UHGV virus genome: UHGV-1497260
Source of the DNA: a virus
Strand: one strand, 5' to 3'
Length of the DNA: 48,617 nucleotides
Part shown: positions 1 through 48,617 of the stretch, one piece after another
How positions within the stretch are numbered: the first letter of the stretch is position 1
Layout: each line of letters begins with the position of its first letter
The notes under the pieces: model-generated
The model's input: only the letters and a program-made list of their open reading frames with translations
The model's database searches: none
What the model was told of the DNA's origin: nothing
Made by a program: the position numbers and the translations under genes

Positions 1-58
1 GATGACCTTTGACCCTTAAAATGATGACCTTTGACCCTTAAAATGATGACCTTTCATC
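1..58. repeat. iteron array: 22-bp unit GATGACCTTTGACCCTTAAAAT, two full copies plus a diverged third copy; continues the array at the window end
   Basis: identical 22-mers at 1-22 and 23-44, and a partial diverged copy at 45-58; the same unit occurs at 48529-48617. Confidence 0.9.
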
Positions 59-1104: not shown

Positions 1105-1488
1105 CTATTTATCTTCTTCCCAATCCTCAATAAACTTTTCTAAACTTTTTAATTTATTTGCAGATATTTCTTCATCATCATGTAATGCACTTATAAAACT
1201 TTCAAAGGAATTTCTGTGAAAGAAACTAAAGAAACTTTTAGTTTCAACTTTTAAATATTCTTCTTTTTCTATTAATGCTTTATAATATGTAAATCTATCT
1301 TTCTTAACAACTTCTAAAAATCCTCTACCAACTAACCTTCTTAAAAAAGTTAACATAGTTGATTTTTTCCATTCATATTTTTCACCTAATGTTTTTAAAA
1401 TTTCAGTAGATGCAACTTCTTCATCTTCACTATCCCAAATGTACATCATTACCAAAAGTTCTGATTCTGGAATCTTTTTTATCTTCAT
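1105..1488 (-). CDS. BlaI/MecI/CopY-family winged-helix transcriptional repressor
   Basis: segments ELLVMMYIWDSEDEEVASTEILKTL...EWKKSTMLTFLRRLVGRGFLEVVKKDRFTYYKALIEKEEYL match the penicillinase-repressor fold; the second in-frame Met has an AAAGGTGG ribosome-binding site, so start is placed at 1488. Confidence 0.7.
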   Translation of the reverse strand: MKIKKIPESELLVMMYIWDSEDEEVASTEILKTLGEKYEWKKSTMLTFLRRLVGRGFLEVVKKDRFTYYKALIEKEEYLKVETKSFFSFFHRNSFESFISALHDDEEISANKLKSLEKFIEDWEEDK

Positions 1489-1698
1489 AAAGCACACCAC
1501 CTTTTCAAAAGTATAACTAAAATACTATAACAATAGAGTTAACTATACAATACTAAATGTCTAAAAATGTTATTCCAATTTTTACCAATTAATTTTTCTT
1601 TAAAAAAAATTTAAGCAGGAGTAAAAAAAAATAAAAAATTATCAAAATTTATCAATATAAAAAGAAATATAAGTATAAATTTTTCTCTTTGTATATTG

Positions 1699-1801
1699 AT
1701 TGTATACAATTCTATTTTTGTAAAATTAAATTTTACAAAATAATCAAAAATGGTAAATTTTGACATTTGCCTAATGTCAAATTAGGTGTTACAATTGTAA
1801 C
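1699..1801. promoter_or_regulatory. cluster of four distinct perfect palindromes: ATTGTATACAAT (1699-1710), TTTTGTAAAATT-A-AATTTTACAAAA (1716-1740), TTTGACATT-5-AATGTCAAA (1759-1781), GTTACAATTGTAAC (1788-1801)
   Basis: sequence reading; lies in a 750-bp non-coding gap between the BlaI-like gene and the first XRE module; the TGTA/TACA cores recall BlaI/CopY half-sites. Confidence 0.6.
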
Positions 1802-2074
1802 ATAAAGAAGATATATATCGAAATAATACATATAAAATACATATAAAACTACGTACGTAAAATATTTTTAAAAATAATCAAAAATCTTAATTTTCAATAT
1901 TGAATACAATTAAATTTTCAAACTCATCTAGGGCATGACATACAAAAGCAAAAAACATTAATTTAGTATCTGATAAAAATTTAAAAATTATAAAAGGGGG
2001 AAGTCTGTTATTTTTCAGAAGCAATGTAACTGTAAAAATATAAATCAGAATATTTTGAAAATATGGGGGATTCT

Positions 2075-2230
2075 ATGGGAGAATTAAAACTTGAATCAAA
2101 AATGAATTGCACTAAAAATAAGAAAAAAGTTGCTATATCTATACATCAAATGAAAAAAATTTCTAAAAAAGATTATGTTTTTTTAACAGATTGCATAGAA
2201 ACATTTTATATGAAAATAAAAGAGGTTTGA
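2075..2230 (+). CDS. small hypothetical protein (51 aa)
   Basis: GGGGGA ribosome-binding site 5 nt upstream of the ATG; ends 2230 and is followed by a hairpin terminator. Confidence 0.3.
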   Translation: MGELKLESKMNCTKNKKKVAISIHQMKKISKKDYVFLTDCIETFYMKIKEV

Positions 2231-2252
2231 TAAATTTTCAAACCTCTTTTTA
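2219..2252. terminator. bidirectional intrinsic terminator: AAGAGGTTTGA-taaatt-TCAAACCTCTT with A-run before and T-run after
   Basis: hairpin plus flanking A/T runs, placed between the plus-strand small ORF and the minus-strand XRE gene. Confidence 0.7.
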
Positions 2253-2255
2253 TTG

Positions 2256-2624
2256 CTATTTGTTTTTCTTTTGCAATAATTCTATCATTTTCAAGATAGC
2301 ATCTCTATCTTCTTGTTCTAATTCATAAAGTTTGTTAGTTATTTCTTTTACATCATCATCAATTTCTAAGTCAGCTAAACAATCTTTATAAATTTCACCT
2401 TTTCCACTTCTTAGCCATTCCTCATTTACTTCAAATTCTCTGCATATGTCGTTAATACTTCTTTCTGTCAAAACTCTTTTTCCTTTTTCCAATAAAGAAA
2501 TTTGATCTTGTGATAAGAAAATTCTTTCCCCAAACGCTCTCTGCGAAAGTCTTTCAAGAGTTCTTAACTCATTTAATCTTTTTCCAATTTCTTTAGCTTT
2601 TAATTCTTTTGAAACTTCTGCCAT
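2256..2624 (-). CDS. XRE-family HTH repressor (CI-like), copy 1
   Basis: HTH segment LSQRAFGERIFLSQDQISLLEKGKR; paralogue of 3258-3632 (ICREFEVNEEWL vs ICREFNVNEQWL); divergent from a small plus-strand gene. Confidence 0.85.
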   Translation of the reverse strand: MAEVSKELKAKEIGKRLNELRTLERLSQRAFGERIFLSQDQISLLEKGKRVLTERSINDICREFEVNEEWLRSGKGEIYKDCLADLEIDDDVKEITNKLYELEQEDRDAILKMIELLQKKNK

Positions 2625-2988: not shown

Positions 2989-3696
2989 TTGAAAATTTCA
3001 GATTTTAATAAAGATCATATAGGTAAAGCGATTCAACTACAAGAGACAAGATTTAATGTCATAACGGATTGCATCATCACAGAAGTAGAAGTAGGCGAAA
3101 TTGTTGTAATGTTTTACATGCAAGAAAATGATGACACAGGATACAAGGCTATAACATGGGAAGATTTAAAAAATTATATCATAAATGGCAAAGGGAAGAG
3201 GCATTATAGGATTTTTGTGGCTTGGGGGATTGTTATAAAAAGAGGTATAACCTCTTTTTATAACTCTTCATTTTTGATTTTTAGATATGCATTGTCAATT
3301 ATTTTTTCTATCGCTTCTCTATCTTCATCTTCCAATGCAAATATCTTTTTTATCATAGTTTTTATTTCTTCACTAGTTTCTAAATCTTCTGTAATGTCAA
3401 CGAACATTTCACCTTCTCCATGCAATAACCATTGTTCATTTACATTAAATTCTCTACAAATATCATTTATGGTTCTTTGTGGTATCTTTCTATGCCCTGT
3501 TTCATATGAAGAGATTTGCGAAAGAGACAAACCTAATTTTTTGCCAAAATCTTTTTGTTTTAATTTCTTTGAAAGCCTTATATCTTTAAGTCGTTGTCTT
3601 CTTTCATTATCTTCTAAGTTTTGTTTTTCCATAACGTCACCCCTTATGAGTATAATTATAACATTTAAAAATACGCTTTGCAATTACAAATTTTAA
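2989..3696 (+). CDS. small conserved phage protein P1 (paralogue of 3966-4172); N-terminal ~85 aa supported, 3-prime end uncertain because the frame stays open across the antisense of XRE2
   Basis: IGKAIQLQETRFNVITDCIITEVEVGEIVVMFYMQE aligns with IGTAVQLQDIRFDTKVDCIITKVEKNEILVMYYEKE of the 3966 ORF; TTG start with AAGGGGAG ribosome-binding site as in the paralogue; segment KNYIINGKGKRHYRIFVAWG resembles the C-terminus of the 4201 initiator. Confidence 0.4.
   Translation: MKISDFNKDHIGKAIQLQETRFNVITDCIITEVEVGEIVVMFYMQENDDTGYKAITWEDLKNYIINGKGKRHYRIFVAWGIVIKRGITSFYNSSFLIFRYALSIIFSIASLSSSSNANIFFIIVFISSLVSKSSVMSTNISPSPCNNHCSFTLNSLQISFMVLCGIFLCPVSYEEICERDKPNFLPKSFCFNFFESLISLSRCLLSLSSKFCFSITSPLMSIIITFKNTLCNYKF
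3258..3632 (-). CDS. XRE-family HTH repressor (CI-like), copy 2
   Basis: HTH segment LKQKDFGKKLGLSLSQISSYETGHRKIP; start MEKQ with AAGGGGTGA ribosome-binding site; paralogue of 2256-2624. Confidence 0.85.
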   Translation of the reverse strand: MEKQNLEDNERRQRLKDIRLSKKLKQKDFGKKLGLSLSQISSYETGHRKIPQRTINDICREFNVNEQWLLHGEGEMFVDITEDLETSEEIKTMIKKIFALEDEDREAIEKIIDNAYLKIKNEEL

Positions 3697-3770
3697 AAAA
3701 ATACGCAAAATAAAATAAAAACTCAAAGCGTATTGACATAGTATGCAAAGCGTAATATAATTGAATCACA
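3690..3770. promoter_or_regulatory. operator/promoter region of switch 2: CAAAGCGTA words at three sites overlapping a consensus TTGACA-17-TATAAT promoter
   Basis: ATACGCTTTGCAA, CAAAGCGTATTGACA and GCAAAGCGTAATATAAT read directly; one operator word lies in the promoter spacer. Confidence 0.65.
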
Positions 3771-3785
3771 GGAAGGAGTGTTAGA

Positions 3786-3965: not shown

Positions 3966-4172
3966 TTGACTTTTAATAAAAATCAAATAGGAACAGCAGT
4001 TCAATTACAAGATATAAGGTTTGATACAAAAGTTGATTGCATCATTACAAAAGTAGAAAAGAATGAAATACTAGTCATGTATTATGAAAAAGAAACAGAG
4101 GAAATAGCATATAAAACTTTGACTAAAGAGGATCTAATACTTGATGATTACAAACTTAAGTTATTATATTAA
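3966..4172 (+). CDS. small conserved phage protein P2 (68 aa), paralogue of the 2989 ORF N-terminus
   Basis: TTG start with GGAAGGGGG ribosome-binding site; paralogy read directly. Confidence 0.5.
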   Translation: MTFNKNQIGTAVQLQDIRFDTKVDCIITKVEKNEILVMYYEKETEEIAYKTLTKEDLILDDYKLKLLY

Positions 4173-8018: not shown

Positions 8019-8070
8019 AAAAAGGATAAAAAATAGGAAATTTTATTAAATAATGATTTTATAAGAAAAA

Positions 8071-8159
8071 CCAATATTGAATAATTTAAAAATTCAATAT
8101 TGAAAAAATCATTTTTCAATATTGAAAATCGGATTTTGAAAAAGTATTGAATTTCAATA
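8071..8159. promoter_or_regulatory. array of palindromes TTCAATATTGAA (8093-8104 and 8115-8126, 22 bp centre to centre), CCAATATTGAA (8071-8081) and GTATTGAATTTCAATAC (8143-8159)
   Basis: sequence reading; lies in the 360-bp gap after the helicase gene. Confidence 0.55.
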
Positions 8160-8388
8160 CTAAAAAAAGTTTGAAAATATAGCATTTGCAACGATTATAT
8201 AAATTAATTTCCTGACATAATACGTACAGGTTTAGATATGCTAGCAAAAAACTTAAAAGTAGTGTAAGGATAAAAAGGCTATATAAATTTATAAAAGTTT
8301 TAAAAGTGTTATTAAATTAGAGCTAAAGTTTATTAATTAATTTCCTCGTAGAAAAATATTATTTTAAATAAATAAAGGAGTGATTTTT

Positions 8389-40584: not shown

Positions 40585-40655
40585 ATTAAAAGACAACCTT
40601 TAAAAATTAATTGTTAATAAAACTAATAAAATTTTCAACTCAGAAGGAACATTAT

Positions 40656-41762
40656 ATGTTAACATTTTTAGATTTGTTTGCTGGCATTGGAGGTTTTAGG
40701 CTGGGAATGGAAAGAGCAGGACACAAATGCGTAGGCCATTGCGAATACGATAAATTTGCAAACTTAAGTTACAAAGCAATGCATAACCCAAAGGAGGATG
40801 AATGGTTTGAAAAAGACATTAGAGAAATTAGAGCAGAAAATATTCCCAAAGCAGATGTGTGGTGTTTTGGATTCCCATGTCAAGACATTAGCATTGCAGG
40901 GAACAAACTTGGATTCAAAGGAAGTCGTTCAAGTTTATTTTTCTCAGTTACAAAAATTATTAGAGAACTCAAAGAGGAAGATAGACCCAAGTACTTACTT
41001 ATTGAAAACGTTAAAAATTTACTTAGTGTTAATAGAGGATTTGACTTTGCCAAACTTCTCATTGAGTTGGACGAAATCGGCTATGATGCAGAATGGCAAA
41101 ATCTCAATTCTAAAAACTTCAGAGTTCCCCAAAATAGAGACAGAGTGTACATTATTGGACATCTTAGAGGCAGAAGTACAAGAAAAGTATTTCCTATCAC
41201 AGGAACGAGTAGAAAAACTACTCTTAAGCAAATAAATAGTCCTAGCCATAGTTCAAATAGAATTTATGATTCAAGCGGATTATCAAAGTGTTTATTAAGT
41301 AAAGGTGGAAATAACACAGGTCTTTATAAAGTTGGTAATGTCAATCCTAGCGGAAATGGTATAGGAGGACAAGTATATAATAGTAAAGGATTATCTCCAA
41401 CCCTTACAACTGAAAAAGGAGAAAGCCCAAAGATATTGATTAAAGAAAATACTAAAAAAGGACATATTGAGGCAGCTATAGGAGATGGCATAAGACTAGA
41501 TCATATAGGAGGCAAAACGGGGCGTGGAAGAGTTCAACACAAAAGAAGTTGTACTTTGACTACTGCAAGTAATGCTGGCGTAATTGGTAAAAAATTTAGA
41601 GTAAGGAGGTTGACTCCAAAAGAATGTTTTAGGTTACAAGGATTTCCAGACGATTATTACGATAGAGCGGCAAGTGTCTGTTCAGAAACTCAACTATACA
41701 AGCAAGCAGGCAATAGTGTTACTGTAGATGTTGTTGAAGAAATAGCAAAGAAATTAAAATAG
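40656..41762 (+). CDS. DNA (cytosine-5)-methyltransferase, orphan
   Basis: motif I FAGIGGF, motif IV GFPCQDIS, motif VI ENVKNL; no adjacent restriction endonuclease. Confidence 0.85.
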   Translation: MLTFLDLFAGIGGFRLGMERAGHKCVGHCEYDKFANLSYKAMHNPKEDEWFEKDIREIRAENIPKADVWCFGFPCQDISIAGNKLGFKGSRSSLFFSVTKIIRELKEEDRPKYLLIENVKNLLSVNRGFDFAKLLIELDEIGYDAEWQNLNSKNFRVPQNRDRVYIIGHLRGRSTRKVFPITGTSRKTTLKQINSPSHSSNRIYDSSGLSKCLLSKGGNNTGLYKVGNVNPSGNGIGGQVYNSKGLSPTLTTEKGESPKILIKENTKKGHIEAAIGDGIRLDHIGGKTGRGRVQHKRSCTLTTASNAGVIGKKFRVRRLTPKECFRLQGFPDDYYDRAASVCSETQLYKQAGNSVTVDVVEEIAKKLK

Positions 41763-41828: not shown

Positions 41829-41899
41829 GGAATAACTTACCTGTACTATCTTAAATAAAAAAATGCTACTATATTATAAACATTTACAAGGAGTGCATC

Positions 41900-42235
41900 A
41901 TGTTAACACAAAGCTTAAAACGTGGCGAATTAAGTATAATGAAAATCTTTTGGAAAAGAAGTTCAAGCATATCAAAGAAAGAAATTATTCGCCTTTGCAA
42001 TGAAAAATACAAGTGGCGGAAATCTACAACAAAAATTCTACTTAAAAGACTTGTTAAAAAAAGAGTCTTGCTTAAAAGAATTAAATTTTTCCACATATAT
42101 TACATACCTATAGTTACAGAAAAGGAATACATTAAATGTAAAATGAATAATTTAGAGCCAAATTATCTGGATGGATACTTTGTACGATTAATGTCTACTG
42201 CACATAAATTCAAAAATATAGATGAAGAAGATTAA
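41900..42235 (+). CDS. BlaI/MecI/CopY-family repressor, second copy (diverged)
   Basis: ELSIMKIFWKRSSSISKKEIIRLCNEKYKWRKSTTKILLKRLVKKRVL aligns with the 1105-1488 protein (ELLVMMYIWDS...KYEWKKSTMLTFLRRLVGRGFL). Confidence 0.55.
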   Translation: MLTQSLKRGELSIMKIFWKRSSSISKKEIIRLCNEKYKWRKSTTKILLKRLVKKRVLLKRIKFFHIYYIPIVTEKEYIKCKMNNLEPNYLDGYFVRLMSTAHKFKNIDEED

Positions 42236-42843: not shown

Positions 42844-43749
42844 TTATTTCATCATTTTTTTGTATCCTTTTGCATTTGCAAAAACATGTTTATCTACATC
42901 ACTCATAACTATTATGCCAGGTATATTCTTTTTAAATGCTTCACCTAACAATTTAGCACCTCCACCCATAACAACAACCGCAGCTGTACTAACTGGATAA
43001 TTTAATTTCAATTCATTGTATATTTCTTTAAATAGAGAAATAGATGCATCTATATTTTTCTTTATATCTTGTTTTTCACCATTTAGGTAAAATCCTTTAT
43101 TTATGTAGTCTTGTATTTTTTCTCTTTTTATCTCAACTTTACCTAAAAATCTTTCGTCCATCTCAAGAGATTTCTTTATTGCATCATATATATTTATTGT
43201 TCCCACATTTATAGAATATGGATTAGTTGCTTTATTTCCTTGTACAAGTGCAATATCTGTTGTCTTTCCACCAATATCAACTAAAACAACATCTCTTCCT
43301 GCAACTTGGTCAACTATATCTTTTGCATAATATAAATAGCCTGTAACGCCCTCTGGGAACACTTGAACAGATCTTATTACTATATCTCTTTTAGTAGTTT
43401 CATTTCCTTTTGCAAATTCAACATGATATTCTTTTCCTTGTAATTTTTCAATCAAATCTTTTCTTAATCCTCCAAATTGCTTCACTGGTAGACCTAATGC
43501 TAGATCAATAACTTCATCATCTGTATTTCTGCATATAGCCCCAAGTAAAAGCGGTAAGAAGTTTTCTTTCTCATATTTAACTATATTTATTTCTTCGTCA
43601 CCTTCGCCTAAATAATATGTTTTATTACCTATTTTAATGCTATCTGAATCTGAACCAAAGTTTTTTACCTCTGTAACTTTACTTTCAAAAATATCATCTG
43701 TACTTGTTTTAACTGCATAATTTCCAATATCTATACCTAATTTACTCAT
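42844..43749 (-). CDS. parM: ParM/Alp-family actin-like segregation ATPase
   Basis: N-terminal MSKLGIDIGNYAVK phosphate-1 motif; actin-fold motifs DIGGKTTD and VVMGGGA; paired with a small upstream gene. Confidence 0.75.
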   Translation of the reverse strand: MSKLGIDIGNYAVKTSTDDIFESKVTEVKNFGSDSDSIKIGNKTYYLGEGDEEINIVKYEKENFLPLLLGAICRNTDDEVIDLALGLPVKQFGGLRKDLIEKLQGKEYHVEFAKGNETTKRDIVIRSVQVFPEGVTGYLYYAKDIVDQVAGRDVVLVDIGGKTTDIALVQGNKATNPYSINVGTINIYDAIKKSLEMDERFLGKVEIKREKIQDYINKGFYLNGEKQDIKKNIDASISLFKEIYNELKLNYPVSTAAVVVMGGGAKLLGEAFKKNIPGIIVMSDVDKHVFANAKGYKKMMK

Positions 43750-44059: not shown

Positions 44060-44150
44060 TTATAAGATATTATTTATAAAATTTTATAATTTTTTACGTA
44101 ATTTTATAATATTTTATAAATTTTATCATTTTGTATATAATTAAAAACAC
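44060..44150. repeat. parC-like centromere: multiple ATTTTATAA repeats including the palindrome TTATAAAATTTTATAA
   Basis: sequence reading; upstream of parR. Confidence 0.55.
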
Positions 44151-47254: not shown

Positions 47255-48442
47255 TTATTTATAGTAATATCCTTCTTCATTTACTATACCTTGATCAAAT
47301 AAATTTCTCCTAACAGTTTCAAGTCTGACAGGATCTTTGCTATAATCAACTTCTCTTTCTTCTTTTTTAACATCTTCATCATCCCAATATTTATCTAATT
47401 CTTCTTTAAACTTTAAATCATCTTTTTGATGAATTATAACTTCACTTATTTTATTTGAAAGTGTTGATTTAAAAAAATCATAATTCTTTGTATTTATAAT
47501 ATCAGTATTATCTCTTTCAAATGCTATAGCAATAGACTTATTAAAAGCATTCAGATAAACATCTTTCTTAAAATCAAACTCTTTAAAATCTTCTTTAAAT
47601 AGTTTAATCGTCCCTGTTGTAAAAATATTTTCATTTGGTATATAAAAACTAAAAGACACTTCATTGTCCTGCTTCTTTTTAGGTATATAATCTTCAACCA
47701 ATATATCTTTATCAAAATATTTTCTAGGTTCATAATCTATCACAGAAAAAATTATTTCATCTATTTTTCTATTTTTTCTTTTTTCTTCTTTTATTGAAAC
47801 AACCATGTTGCCTTTTTTATTTATTTCATTCATTGCTCTTTTTAGAACATTTTGTTTAAAATATTTATACTCTGGATATACATTATCTTTTAATTTCAAA
47901 TAAAATCTTAATTCATCTAACTTATATTTTATCTCCACTTCCTTATTTTCTCTGCTCCATAGTCTAAATAAAGTGTATAACCTCTGAGTATATGCACCTC
48001 TAAAATTAAATAACACTGATAAATTAATAGCTGTATATCCATTTTTCTTTTTCTGCATTTTTACAAAATCAGTTATATGATTGTATAGAACTTCATGCAT
48101 CATAATTGTATAAATTTGGTCTGTATGATCCAATTCATATGTATTAATTAAACCACTTCCAAAAGTTTTTAACTTGCCAGTTGTCTCTTCTATATAGTCA
48201 AATTCCAAAACACTTTGTTGAAACATGTTCAAAATTTCTTTTATATTTTTATGCTCATAATCATTATTGTTTTTCATAAATACTTTTAGTTCTTCTTTTG
48301 ATATAGTTGTAACATAAGATGAATTTTGCTGTTTCTGAGCATTAAAAAGTATTTTGTAAAATAATTTATTTTCCACATTTGTAAAATCATATTTACTTTT
48401 TATTAAATTATTTGGTTGCATTAAAATTTCTTTTTTTTCCAA
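47255..48442 (-). CDS. plasmid replication initiator, Rep_3-like (iteron-binding)
   Basis: N-terminal segment NNLIKSKYDFTNVENKLFYKILFNAQ resembles the Rep_3 family signature; gene abuts the iteron array. Confidence 0.65.
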   Translation of the reverse strand: MEKKEILMQPNNLIKSKYDFTNVENKLFYKILFNAQKQQNSSYVTTISKEELKVFMKNNNDYEHKNIKEILNMFQQSVLEFDYIEETTGKLKTFGSGLINTYELDHTDQIYTIMMHEVLYNHITDFVKMQKKKNGYTAINLSVLFNFRGAYTQRLYTLFRLWSRENKEVEIKYKLDELRFYLKLKDNVYPEYKYFKQNVLKRAMNEINKKGNMVVSIKEEKRKNRKIDEIIFSVIDYEPRKYFDKDILVEDYIPKKKQDNEVSFSFYIPNENIFTTGTIKLFKEDFKEFDFKKDVYLNAFNKSIAIAFERDNTDIINTKNYDFFKSTLSNKISEVIIHQKDDLKFKEELDKYWDDEDVKKEEREVDYSKDPVRLETVRRNLFDQGIVNEEGYYYK

Positions 48443-48506: not shown

Positions 48507-48617
48507 GCTCACCTTTGACCCTTAAAATGATGACCTTTGACCCTTAAAATGATGACCTTTGACCCTTAAAATGATGACCTTTCGACCCTTAAAATGATGA
48601 CCTTTGACCCTTAAAAT
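48507..48617. repeat. iteron array: one degenerate plus four 22/23-bp copies of GATGACCTTTGACCCTTAAAAT
   Basis: copies at 48529-48550, 48551-48572, 48573-48595 (one inserted C) and 48596-48617; degenerate copy at 48507-48528. Confidence 0.9.

Follow-up and report, generated by a model that had tools for sequence, protein, structure and literature searches.

Repressors of the BlaI/MecI family are known from the BlaI/BlaR1 and MecI/MecR1 systems of Staphylococcus aureus and Bacillus licheniformis, in which the repressor is accompanied by an M56 sensor-protease and a beta-lactamase or PBP2a target; BlaI and MecI bind a dyad centred on TACANNTGTA (PMC1935004). Clostridioides difficile has several blaI/blaR pairs, with CD0470/CD0471 being beta-lactam-responsive and the chromosomal BlaIR (CD0471/CD0470) controlling blaXD (bioRxiv 10.1101/630020), and further BlaI+BlaR1 pairs are found on pCD6-like C. 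difficile plasmids (PMC6807378). Sensor-less members of the family are already annotated and published in C. difficile myophages, where they occur as pairs (phiCD119 ORF41/42, phiC2, phiMMP01-03, CDKM9/15, phiCD505, phiCD418, CDMH1; PHROG 1077). Here we describe two direct orthologues of these phage genes, A and B, in UHGV virus genome UHGV-1497260 (hereafter the window, meaning the whole 48,617-nucleotide stretch of DNA that was analysed), which is one whole circular C. difficile myovirus-type phage-plasmid of the pCDBI1/pCd10_2 family, together with a 16-bp perfect dyad, P4, that is a candidate operator for A.

Two orphan BlaI/MecI-family genes

Structurally, A is predicted to have the full-length MecI/BlaI fold, with an N-terminal winged helix and a C-terminal helical dimerisation domain: its AlphaFold2 model (predicted local distance difference test score, pLDDT, 90.8; topology H-E-H-H-E-E-H-H-H) has MecI/BlaI as its top PDB matches in Foldseek (1okr, 1sd4 and 1xsd; template-modelling, TM, scores of 0.76-0.84), and the protein matches positions 3-114 of the 115 of PF03965 (E=1.8e-24) as well as PHROG 1077 (E=8e-51). 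It differs from BlaI and MecI in its identity to them (~21-22%), in having Ala-Leu for Asn-Phe, and in scoring far below the NCBIfam BlaI/MecI cut-offs; both A and B fall below the NCBIfam cut-offs for CopY, BlaI and MecI. Assignment to CopY/TcrY (TIGR02698) was rejected, as neither protein has the C-terminal CxCxxxxCxC motif and the score, 65.7 bits, falls far short of the 121.95 required. A is devoid of cysteine and is therefore not a CopY, and, unlike CopY/CopR systems, no copper-export genes accompany A and B in the window. A is kept in every relative of the element, with a ratio of nonsynonymous to synonymous substitution rates (dN/dS) of 0.05-0.08 that points to strong purifying selection.

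B matches PF03965 over profile positions 5-104 of 115 (E=2.3e-15) and PHROG 1077 (E=3e-37), is 27% identical to A and, by C-terminal comparison, lacks the last helix of its phage orthologues. By tblastn and blastn, PF03965 genes are present in most C. difficile myophages, namely those listed above together with phiCD508 and CDHM19, and also in the 130-kb phiCD211 group. Integrating myophages carry two co-oriented tandem copies, B->A, between the lysis module and attP/integrase, which places the pair at the right prophage end, adjoining host DNA. An all-against-all comparison separated these genes into two orthologous types with 27-32% identity across types: A groups with the integrase-proximal copy (44-46% identity; phiCD505, phiCD418) and B with the upstream copy (44-46%; phiCD505, phiCD119, phiCD418), and best similarities are reciprocal within each type. 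The window's A and B are thus orthologues of an old phage B->A pair, with the plasmid-maintenance (par/rep) block here taking the integrase's place between them. B keeps its position after the lysis module, as in the integrating phages; in contrast to the tandem beside the integrase, A and B lie ~8 kb apart on opposite strands. A reading of the window made from its letters alone (hereafter the sequence-only reading) had proposed that two paralogous BlaI-type repressors flank the plasmid-maintenance block, and this is confirmed by the PF03965 matches and by the ParM gene, Rep gene and iterons lying between them. Of 11 related plasmids, 9 have B and two, pCd10_2 and pCd7_2, have lost it by deletion, so that the gene is dispensable. 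In the CDKM9/15 paper, two copies with a penicillinase repressor family domain were placed in the lysogeny module and named repR (PMC5127024). The RepR of phiCD119 is, however, no BlaI-type precedent, being an XRE/HTH_3 protein; the PF03965 genes of that phage are ORF41 and ORF42.

No sensor accompanies either gene. HExxH was not found in any stop-to-stop open reading frame (ORF) of at least 120 aa in the six frames of the whole circular element, and no M56 peptidase, beta-lactamase or penicillin-binding protein (PBP) appeared in the Prokaryotic Genome Annotation Pipeline (PGAP) annotation of pCd10_2 or in Pfam scans of window-specific ORFs, those differing from pCd10_2 encoding tail fibre, methylase and similar functions. 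We therefore conclude that the element has no M56 sensor, beta-lactamase or PBP, in agreement with the earlier statement that the window encodes no BlaR1/MecR1-like sensor; nor does the complete circular element hold an adjacent BlaR1 with a beta-lactamase target, the arrangement of an ordinary resistance operon. M56 matches were likewise absent from all named C. difficile phages in a set of 50,697 phage records.

Evolutionarily, a profile-free search of 1.84 billion representatives returned 1490 relatives of A, none closer than 47%, and genomic context was examined for nine of the closest, seven cellular and two prophage. The two prophage relatives (P0011, P0012) are B->A pairs. For six of the seven cellular ones (P0010, P0013, P0014, P0015, P0017, P0018) the next gene is, or starts as, Peptidase_M56, and for the seventh (P0020) it is an S66 peptidase. 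These six BlaI-M56 operons belong to Clostridia-type genomes or metagenomes, and their repressors, the closest cellular relatives of A, have the same length, 37-47% identity to it (the best sensor-paired homologue being at 47%) and, as in A, a C-terminal motif S/T/A-L-H/N followed by acidic residues. A thus appears to descend from, or to be closest to, classical repressor-sensor operons, yet it has neither the Peptidase_M56 gene that comes next in those operons nor the dyads that most of them have in their own proximal promoter. At the position of the MecI scissile bond (Asn101-Phe102), the alignment shows Ala-Leu for A and Thr-Ala for B. Asn-Phe is present in 3 of 150 close family representatives, and the M56-paired homologues have Thr-Leu or Ser-Leu; since sensor-paired homologues also do without it, its absence is not diagnostic for cleavage, and we dropped it as an argument against cleavage.

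The element itself is closest to pCd10_2, which is 98.8% identical over the first 6 kb of the window, with pCDBI1, the 45-kb plasmid of DSM 1296 and others at 95-97% over the same stretch; the matching relatives are non-mobilizable C. difficile plasmids of 42-48 kb. Annotation of pCd10_2 gives a complete myovirus (portal, sheath, tube, tape measure, baseplate, holin and amidase) together with ParM, a replication initiator, two GIY-YIG nucleases, a DnaB-like helicase and several helix-turn-helix (HTH) regulators. The array of iterons upstream of rep is the plasmid origin; it continues from the last letters of the window into the first, which shows that the whole circular element is covered. The 90%-identity cluster of A includes members that are each seen on roughly 900-1000 C. 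difficile contigs, so the element is common.

P4, a candidate operator on a conserved promoter

The non-coding DNA beside A holds four perfect palindromes within 1699-1802 (P1-P4; Table 1), as the sequence-only reading had noticed. Three with arms of at least 8 nt fall in a stretch of 110 bp, whereas Markov simulations based on the local sequence predict 0.46 for the entire 574-bp spacer (P ~0.008); the cluster thus exceeds chance. Two of the four had been described as built on TGTA/TACA cores; P4 alone has the core of the family, TACAnnTGTA, and in P1 the order is reversed (TGTATACA). P2 is imperfect (C to A) in most close relatives, and the symmetry of P3 decays in distant ones.

Apart from P4, no intergenic sequence of the 48.6-kb window matches TACAnnTGTA or KACAnnTGTM. 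As a candidate operator, P4 has the central TACANNTGTA of the BlaI/MecI dyads (PMC1935004) and lies at a promoter, and it fits 14 of the 16 positions of RNYKACANNTGTMRNY, the refined consensus of CopY/CopR, which belong to the same Pfam family and recognise a 'cop box' with the same core (PMC7253601). Of the M56-paired homologues, which number six, four have a KACAnnTGTM dyad, or two of them, 28-76 bp upstream of the repressor's own start codon, and a fifth has TACATATGTA 460 bp upstream; in P4 the core is placed instead on a conserved -10, outside A's proximal promoter. The promoter concerned is of sigma-70 type, and each of the nine relatives in the alignment has preserved it (-35 TTGCCT or TTGATT, spacer of 17 nt, and -10 TACAAT, TATACT or TATATT). 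The P4 core is likewise kept in all relatives carrying A, whereas it is lost at the homologous position in all relatives that have no PF03965 gene (phiSemix9P1, HGP05, L034, L119, L120), which read TACTATACTTGTAGTA, that is TACTATA(C/T)TTGTAGTA, with the outer arms preserved through two compensatory changes. P4 is not the operator of the two XRE repressors encoded nearby, because their operators are visibly different repeats; P1-P4 as a group were rejected as XRE operators on the same ground, the XRE divergent regions carrying repeats of the ACGACAAAGT and GCAAAGCGTA types. In our estimate, binding of P4 by A (or B) is slightly less likely than not.

Several observations weigh against this assignment. 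P4 is 299 bp from the start of A, and in pCDBI1 and pESS17301c an FxLYD gene lies between them; the palindrome block as a whole travels with the small-ORF/XRE module to its right and not with A. Two recognition-helix residues of A differ from MecI. The co-occurrence of A with the P4 core involves two clades only and so amounts to one evolutionary event, and scans of IMG/VR, GTDB genomes and Joint Genome Institute (JGI) metagenomes for further lineages recovered only the same two. No KACAnnTGTM site occurs within 5 kb of the orthologous A/B pairs in phiCD505 and phiCD418. The 10-bp core is insufficient for binding (PMC7253601), P4 can equally be read as two back-to-back extended -10 boxes, and the literature on phage-encoded BlaI homologues yielded no function, expression or binding data. 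The link between repressor and palindromes proposed by the sequence-only reading is therefore narrowed: P4 is a credible candidate operator on a conserved -10 in the lysogeny-control region, whereas assignment of the block as a whole to A is unsupported, given the FxLYD cassette between them and the presence of the block in relatives without PF03965 genes.

The region directly upstream of A has a candidate promoter of its own on the minus strand (hexamers read from the sequence: -35 TTGGAA 1578-1573, -10 TAGTAT 1555-1550), and there is no KACAnnTGTM site in 1489-1614. A shared operator of the A and B promoters was considered and rejected, the only piece common to the two upstream regions being the 10-mer TTGGAATAAC, in the same orientation and probably a -35 region. 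The 15-mer TGGTAAAAATTGGAA occurs at 1569-1583 (minus strand), ~95 nt upstream of A, and again upstream of the phiCD418 A orthologue (L011 5341-5444) and in the phiSemix9P1-type non-coding block (L004 ~4024-4038), at the place occupied by TGGTAAATTTTGACA in the window; these occurrences probably represent one common upstream/-35 promoter element. Upstream of B, phiCD505, phiCD418 and phiCD119 (L010 5867-6180; L011 5772-6080; L013 3370-3670) carry the dyads TTTTCTTCTAAGAAAA and GGTAA-AAC-TTACC, the latter being degenerate in the window (GGAATAACTTACC). Since the DNA of these three integrating phages is homologous there, the TTTTCTTCTAAGAAAA and GGTAA-N3-TTACC dyads are uninformative on an operator.

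The explanation that we favour overall, while holding it to fall somewhat short of an even chance, is that A is a sensor-less repressor acting on P4. In the carried (plasmid-prophage) state A would be expressed from its own promoter and would repress as a dimer, without a signal input dedicated to it; P4, over the -10 of the conserved rightward promoter, is the likeliest target. Bound there, A would keep the 51-aa ORF silent, which converges on the XRE-1 gene and stops at the terminator they share. As P4 reads as the same extended -10 on the opposite strand, A may also limit leftward transcription toward its own gene. B would be an accessory paralogue that can be lost, and P1, P2 and P3 would be sites for other proteins or, in part, chance products of AT-rich promoter DNA.

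Table 1 Features of the window that bear on A, B and P4, with positions counted from its first nucleotide
Feature	Position	Strand	Remarks
Cargo insertion slot	1615-1686		Between gene A and conserved block; empty in the window
Gene A, type-A orphan BlaI/MecI-family winged-helix repressor	1105-1488	-	127 aa; PF03965, PHROG 1077
Upstream region of A	1489-1614	-	Conserved with gene A up to ~1614 in pCDBI1 and pESS17301c; travels with A in all relatives
P1, ATTGTATACAAT	1699-1710		Perfect palindrome at slot boundary; absent from pCDBI1 and pESS17301c
P2, TTTTGTAAAATT-A-AATTTTACAAAA	1716-1740		Arms 12-1-12
P3, TTTGACATT-TGCCT-AATGTCAAA	1759-1781		Arms 9-5-9; covers -35 of rightward promoter
P4, TGTTACAATTGTAACA	1787-1802		Core TACAATTGTA; 16-bp perfect dyad, candidate BlaI-type operator; overlaps -10 TACAAT 1790-1795
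Rightward promoter	-35 TTGCCT 1767-1772; -10 TACAAT 1790-1795	+	Conserved in all 9 aligned relatives; -10 overlapped by P4
Conserved leader	1803-2074	+	~270 nt from P4 promoter to small ORF; ends with palindrome ATATTTTGAAAATAT and ribosome-binding site GGGGGA
51-aa ORF	2075-2230	+	Annotated in pCd10_2; PHROG 7633, E=1.6e-34
Bidirectional intrinsic terminator	2218-2250		Between 51-aa ORF and convergent XRE repressor gene
XRE repressor gene (XRE-1)	2256-2624	-	Convergent with 51-aa ORF
Gene B, type-B orphan BlaI-family gene	41900-42235	+	111 aa; PF03965, PHROG 1077
ParM gene	42844-43749		Plasmid-maintenance block
Rep gene (rep)	47255-48442	-	Plasmid-maintenance block
22-bp iterons, GATGACCTTTGACCCTTAAAAT	48511-48617 and 1-54		~7 copies, spanning the window junction, upstream of rep

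The conserved block and competing accounts

Comparison of relatives divides the non-coding stretch beside A, which is ~586 bp long (1489-2074), into the part conserved with A (1489-1614), a cargo slot (~1615-1686) and a conserved block that holds P1-P4 (1687-2074). The 750 bp originally given for it had included the 51-aa ORF and the terminator in error. In pCDBI1 and pESS17301c the slot holds an 834-bp FxLYD gene cassette, and phiSemix9P1, HGP05, CP103805 and a CD160 contig have clustered regularly interspaced short palindromic repeat (CRISPR) arrays at the equivalent position, ending in a terminator at the same joint. Across these relatives the left neighbour of the block is A, FxLYD, a CRISPR array or Hpt/response-regulator genes, and the small ORF and XRE gene on its right give way to unrelated counterparts. 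The 51-aa ORF, the only gene driven by the P4 promoter, has no Pfam match and is itself replaced by unrelated small ORFs in relatives.

The account that competes best, though we regard it as doubtful, is that the palindrome block has nothing to do with BlaI-type proteins: it would be an autonomous promoter/operator module and mosaic joint of the small-ORF/XRE unit, bound by other regulators, with A acting elsewhere. The block remains 67-98% identical while both flanks are exchanged, and it persists in phiSemix9P1 and HGP05, whose whole genomes were searched and encode no PF03965 protein; the two compensatory changes that keep the P4 dyad symmetrical in the absence of a PF03965 gene imply another dimeric binder, and the imperfection of P2 and P3 in relatives fits the same picture. 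Against it, relatives without A do not retain the exact family core, the two XRE proteins encoded nearby have operators of another kind, and the specificity of A's subfamily points to P4.

Other functions for this DNA were rejected. No Rfam match at the gathering threshold or at E<=1 was found in 1489-2255 for a non-coding RNA or riboswitch, except weak terminator-like matches, and the 270-nt leader has no conserved fold as an RNA element (RNAalifold -1.3 kcal/mol, 1 covarying pair). A replication origin in the palindrome block is likewise discarded, the Rep iterons lying elsewhere, upstream of rep across the window junction; the proposal that the repressors control replication is unsupported as well, as neither these iterons nor the rep promoter carry such a site.

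An account that we hold to be improbable is lysogenic conversion, in which A and B would be uninducible look-alikes that bind KACAnnTGTM operators of the host (bla and other M56-controlled operons) and lock or retune their regulons, P4 being incidental or minor. The position of the B->A pair at the prophage end by attR in integrating phages, a usual place for prophage-expressed genes, speaks for it, as does the fact that the core of A's subfamily is the canonical core of host BlaI systems, with a canonical BlaI site in the blaX promoter (10.1101/630020). Since the integrating phages have no KACAnnTGTM site near A/B, a target outside the phage is also plausible. In the present element, however, a perfect canonical dyad sits on a conserved phage promoter, and B has been lost from 2 of the 11 plasmids with no apparent consequence.

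Lysogenic conversion is at least as plausible as the converse, that a BlaR1/M56 sensor of the host cleaves A and/or B in trans under beta-lactam or cell-wall stress, so that derepression couples induction to the antibiotic, which we consider unlikely. Potential cross-talk partners do exist in the same host and the same repressor family, on the chromosome (CD0470/CD0471, beta-lactam-responsive, among several blaI/blaR pairs; bioRxiv 10.1101/630020) and on pCD6-like plasmids. The gene order of the six cellular homologues that directly precede a Peptidase_M56 gene, the completeness of A's C-terminal domain and the resemblance of its Ala-Leu to the Ser/Thr-Leu of sensor-paired homologues would suit cleavage as well, and a phage of this plasmid family, on pJ21_1, is released spontaneously and increasingly so with deoxycholate (PMC10993401). 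Set against these points, the element and all named C. difficile phages lack a sensor, no host sensor came to light whose own repressor is close to A (47% is the highest identity reached by a sensor-paired homologue), and the literature yielded no report in which beta-lactam exposure induces such elements. The S. aureus repressors BlaI and MecI co-repress, but each is known to respond only to its cognate sensor although the two are about 60% identical, and A is only ~40-47% identical to the sensor-paired proteins found. The fullest version of the idea, in which captured BlaI-type repressors are receivers of host BlaR1-type sensors, a beta-lactam leading to cleavage of A, opening of the P4 promoter and a switch in expression or induction independent of SOS in a widespread phage-plasmid and, by extension, in most C. 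difficile myophages, is very unlikely.

Orthologous pairs are present in most sequenced C. difficile myophages, none with known function, and to these our analysis adds a candidate operator (P4), a candidate regulated gene (the 51-aa ORF) and the M56 coupling of six of the seven nearest cellular relatives examined. C. difficile disease is triggered by beta-lactams, and cross-talk with host beta-lactam sensing, in either direction, would link prophage or plasmid carriage to the antibiotic response; if there is no cross-talk, A and B would be ordinary accessory phage repressors. Antibiotic coupling of A and B has no direct support, and the prediction of P4 as an operator for A is specific and testable.

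Other repeats and variable regions of the element

The slot was compared across seven loci (window 1615-1686; L002 3115-3948; L003; L004 3284-3978; L005; L006; L119). Its CRISPR arrays in phiSemix9P1-type phage-plasmids are of C. difficile type with a ~66-bp period, and in CP103805 Hpt/response-regulator/diguanylate-cyclase genes lie further left of it.

Only one other palindrome cluster comparable to P1-P4 is present in the window, at 8051-8200, directly after the DnaB-like helicase gene. It contains TTCAATATTGAA at 8093 and 8115 and related dyads at 8077 and 8143-8161, and may be a phage replication origin or the site of a shared regulator; a further copy of this 12-mer, TTCAATATTGAA, lies within the conserved non-coding block, at 1893-1904.

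Two tandem XRE-repressor/small-ORF switch modules are recognisable at 2625-2795 and 3684-3785. The divergent region of the first has three copies of ACGACAAA(G/A)T and one inverted copy, and in that of the second a consensus TTGACA-17-TATAAT promoter is surrounded by repeats of the GCAAAGCGTA type. Neither XRE protein has a peptidase domain, so induction must act through another factor.

A second set of repeats, of the TAAAAACTAT type, lies at 95-144, upstream of an HTH_11 gene (267-956). The region from the lysis genes to the par module is variable among relatives: 40611-41762 (a C-5 cytosine methyltransferase gene) and 41882-42133 (most of gene B) are present in the window and absent from pCd10_2, which is otherwise 96-99% identical. 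At 44073-44132, upstream of a 67-aa ORF and the ParM operon, 10/20-bp AT-rich tandem repeats (TTTATAAAAT) are likely a parC-type centromere.

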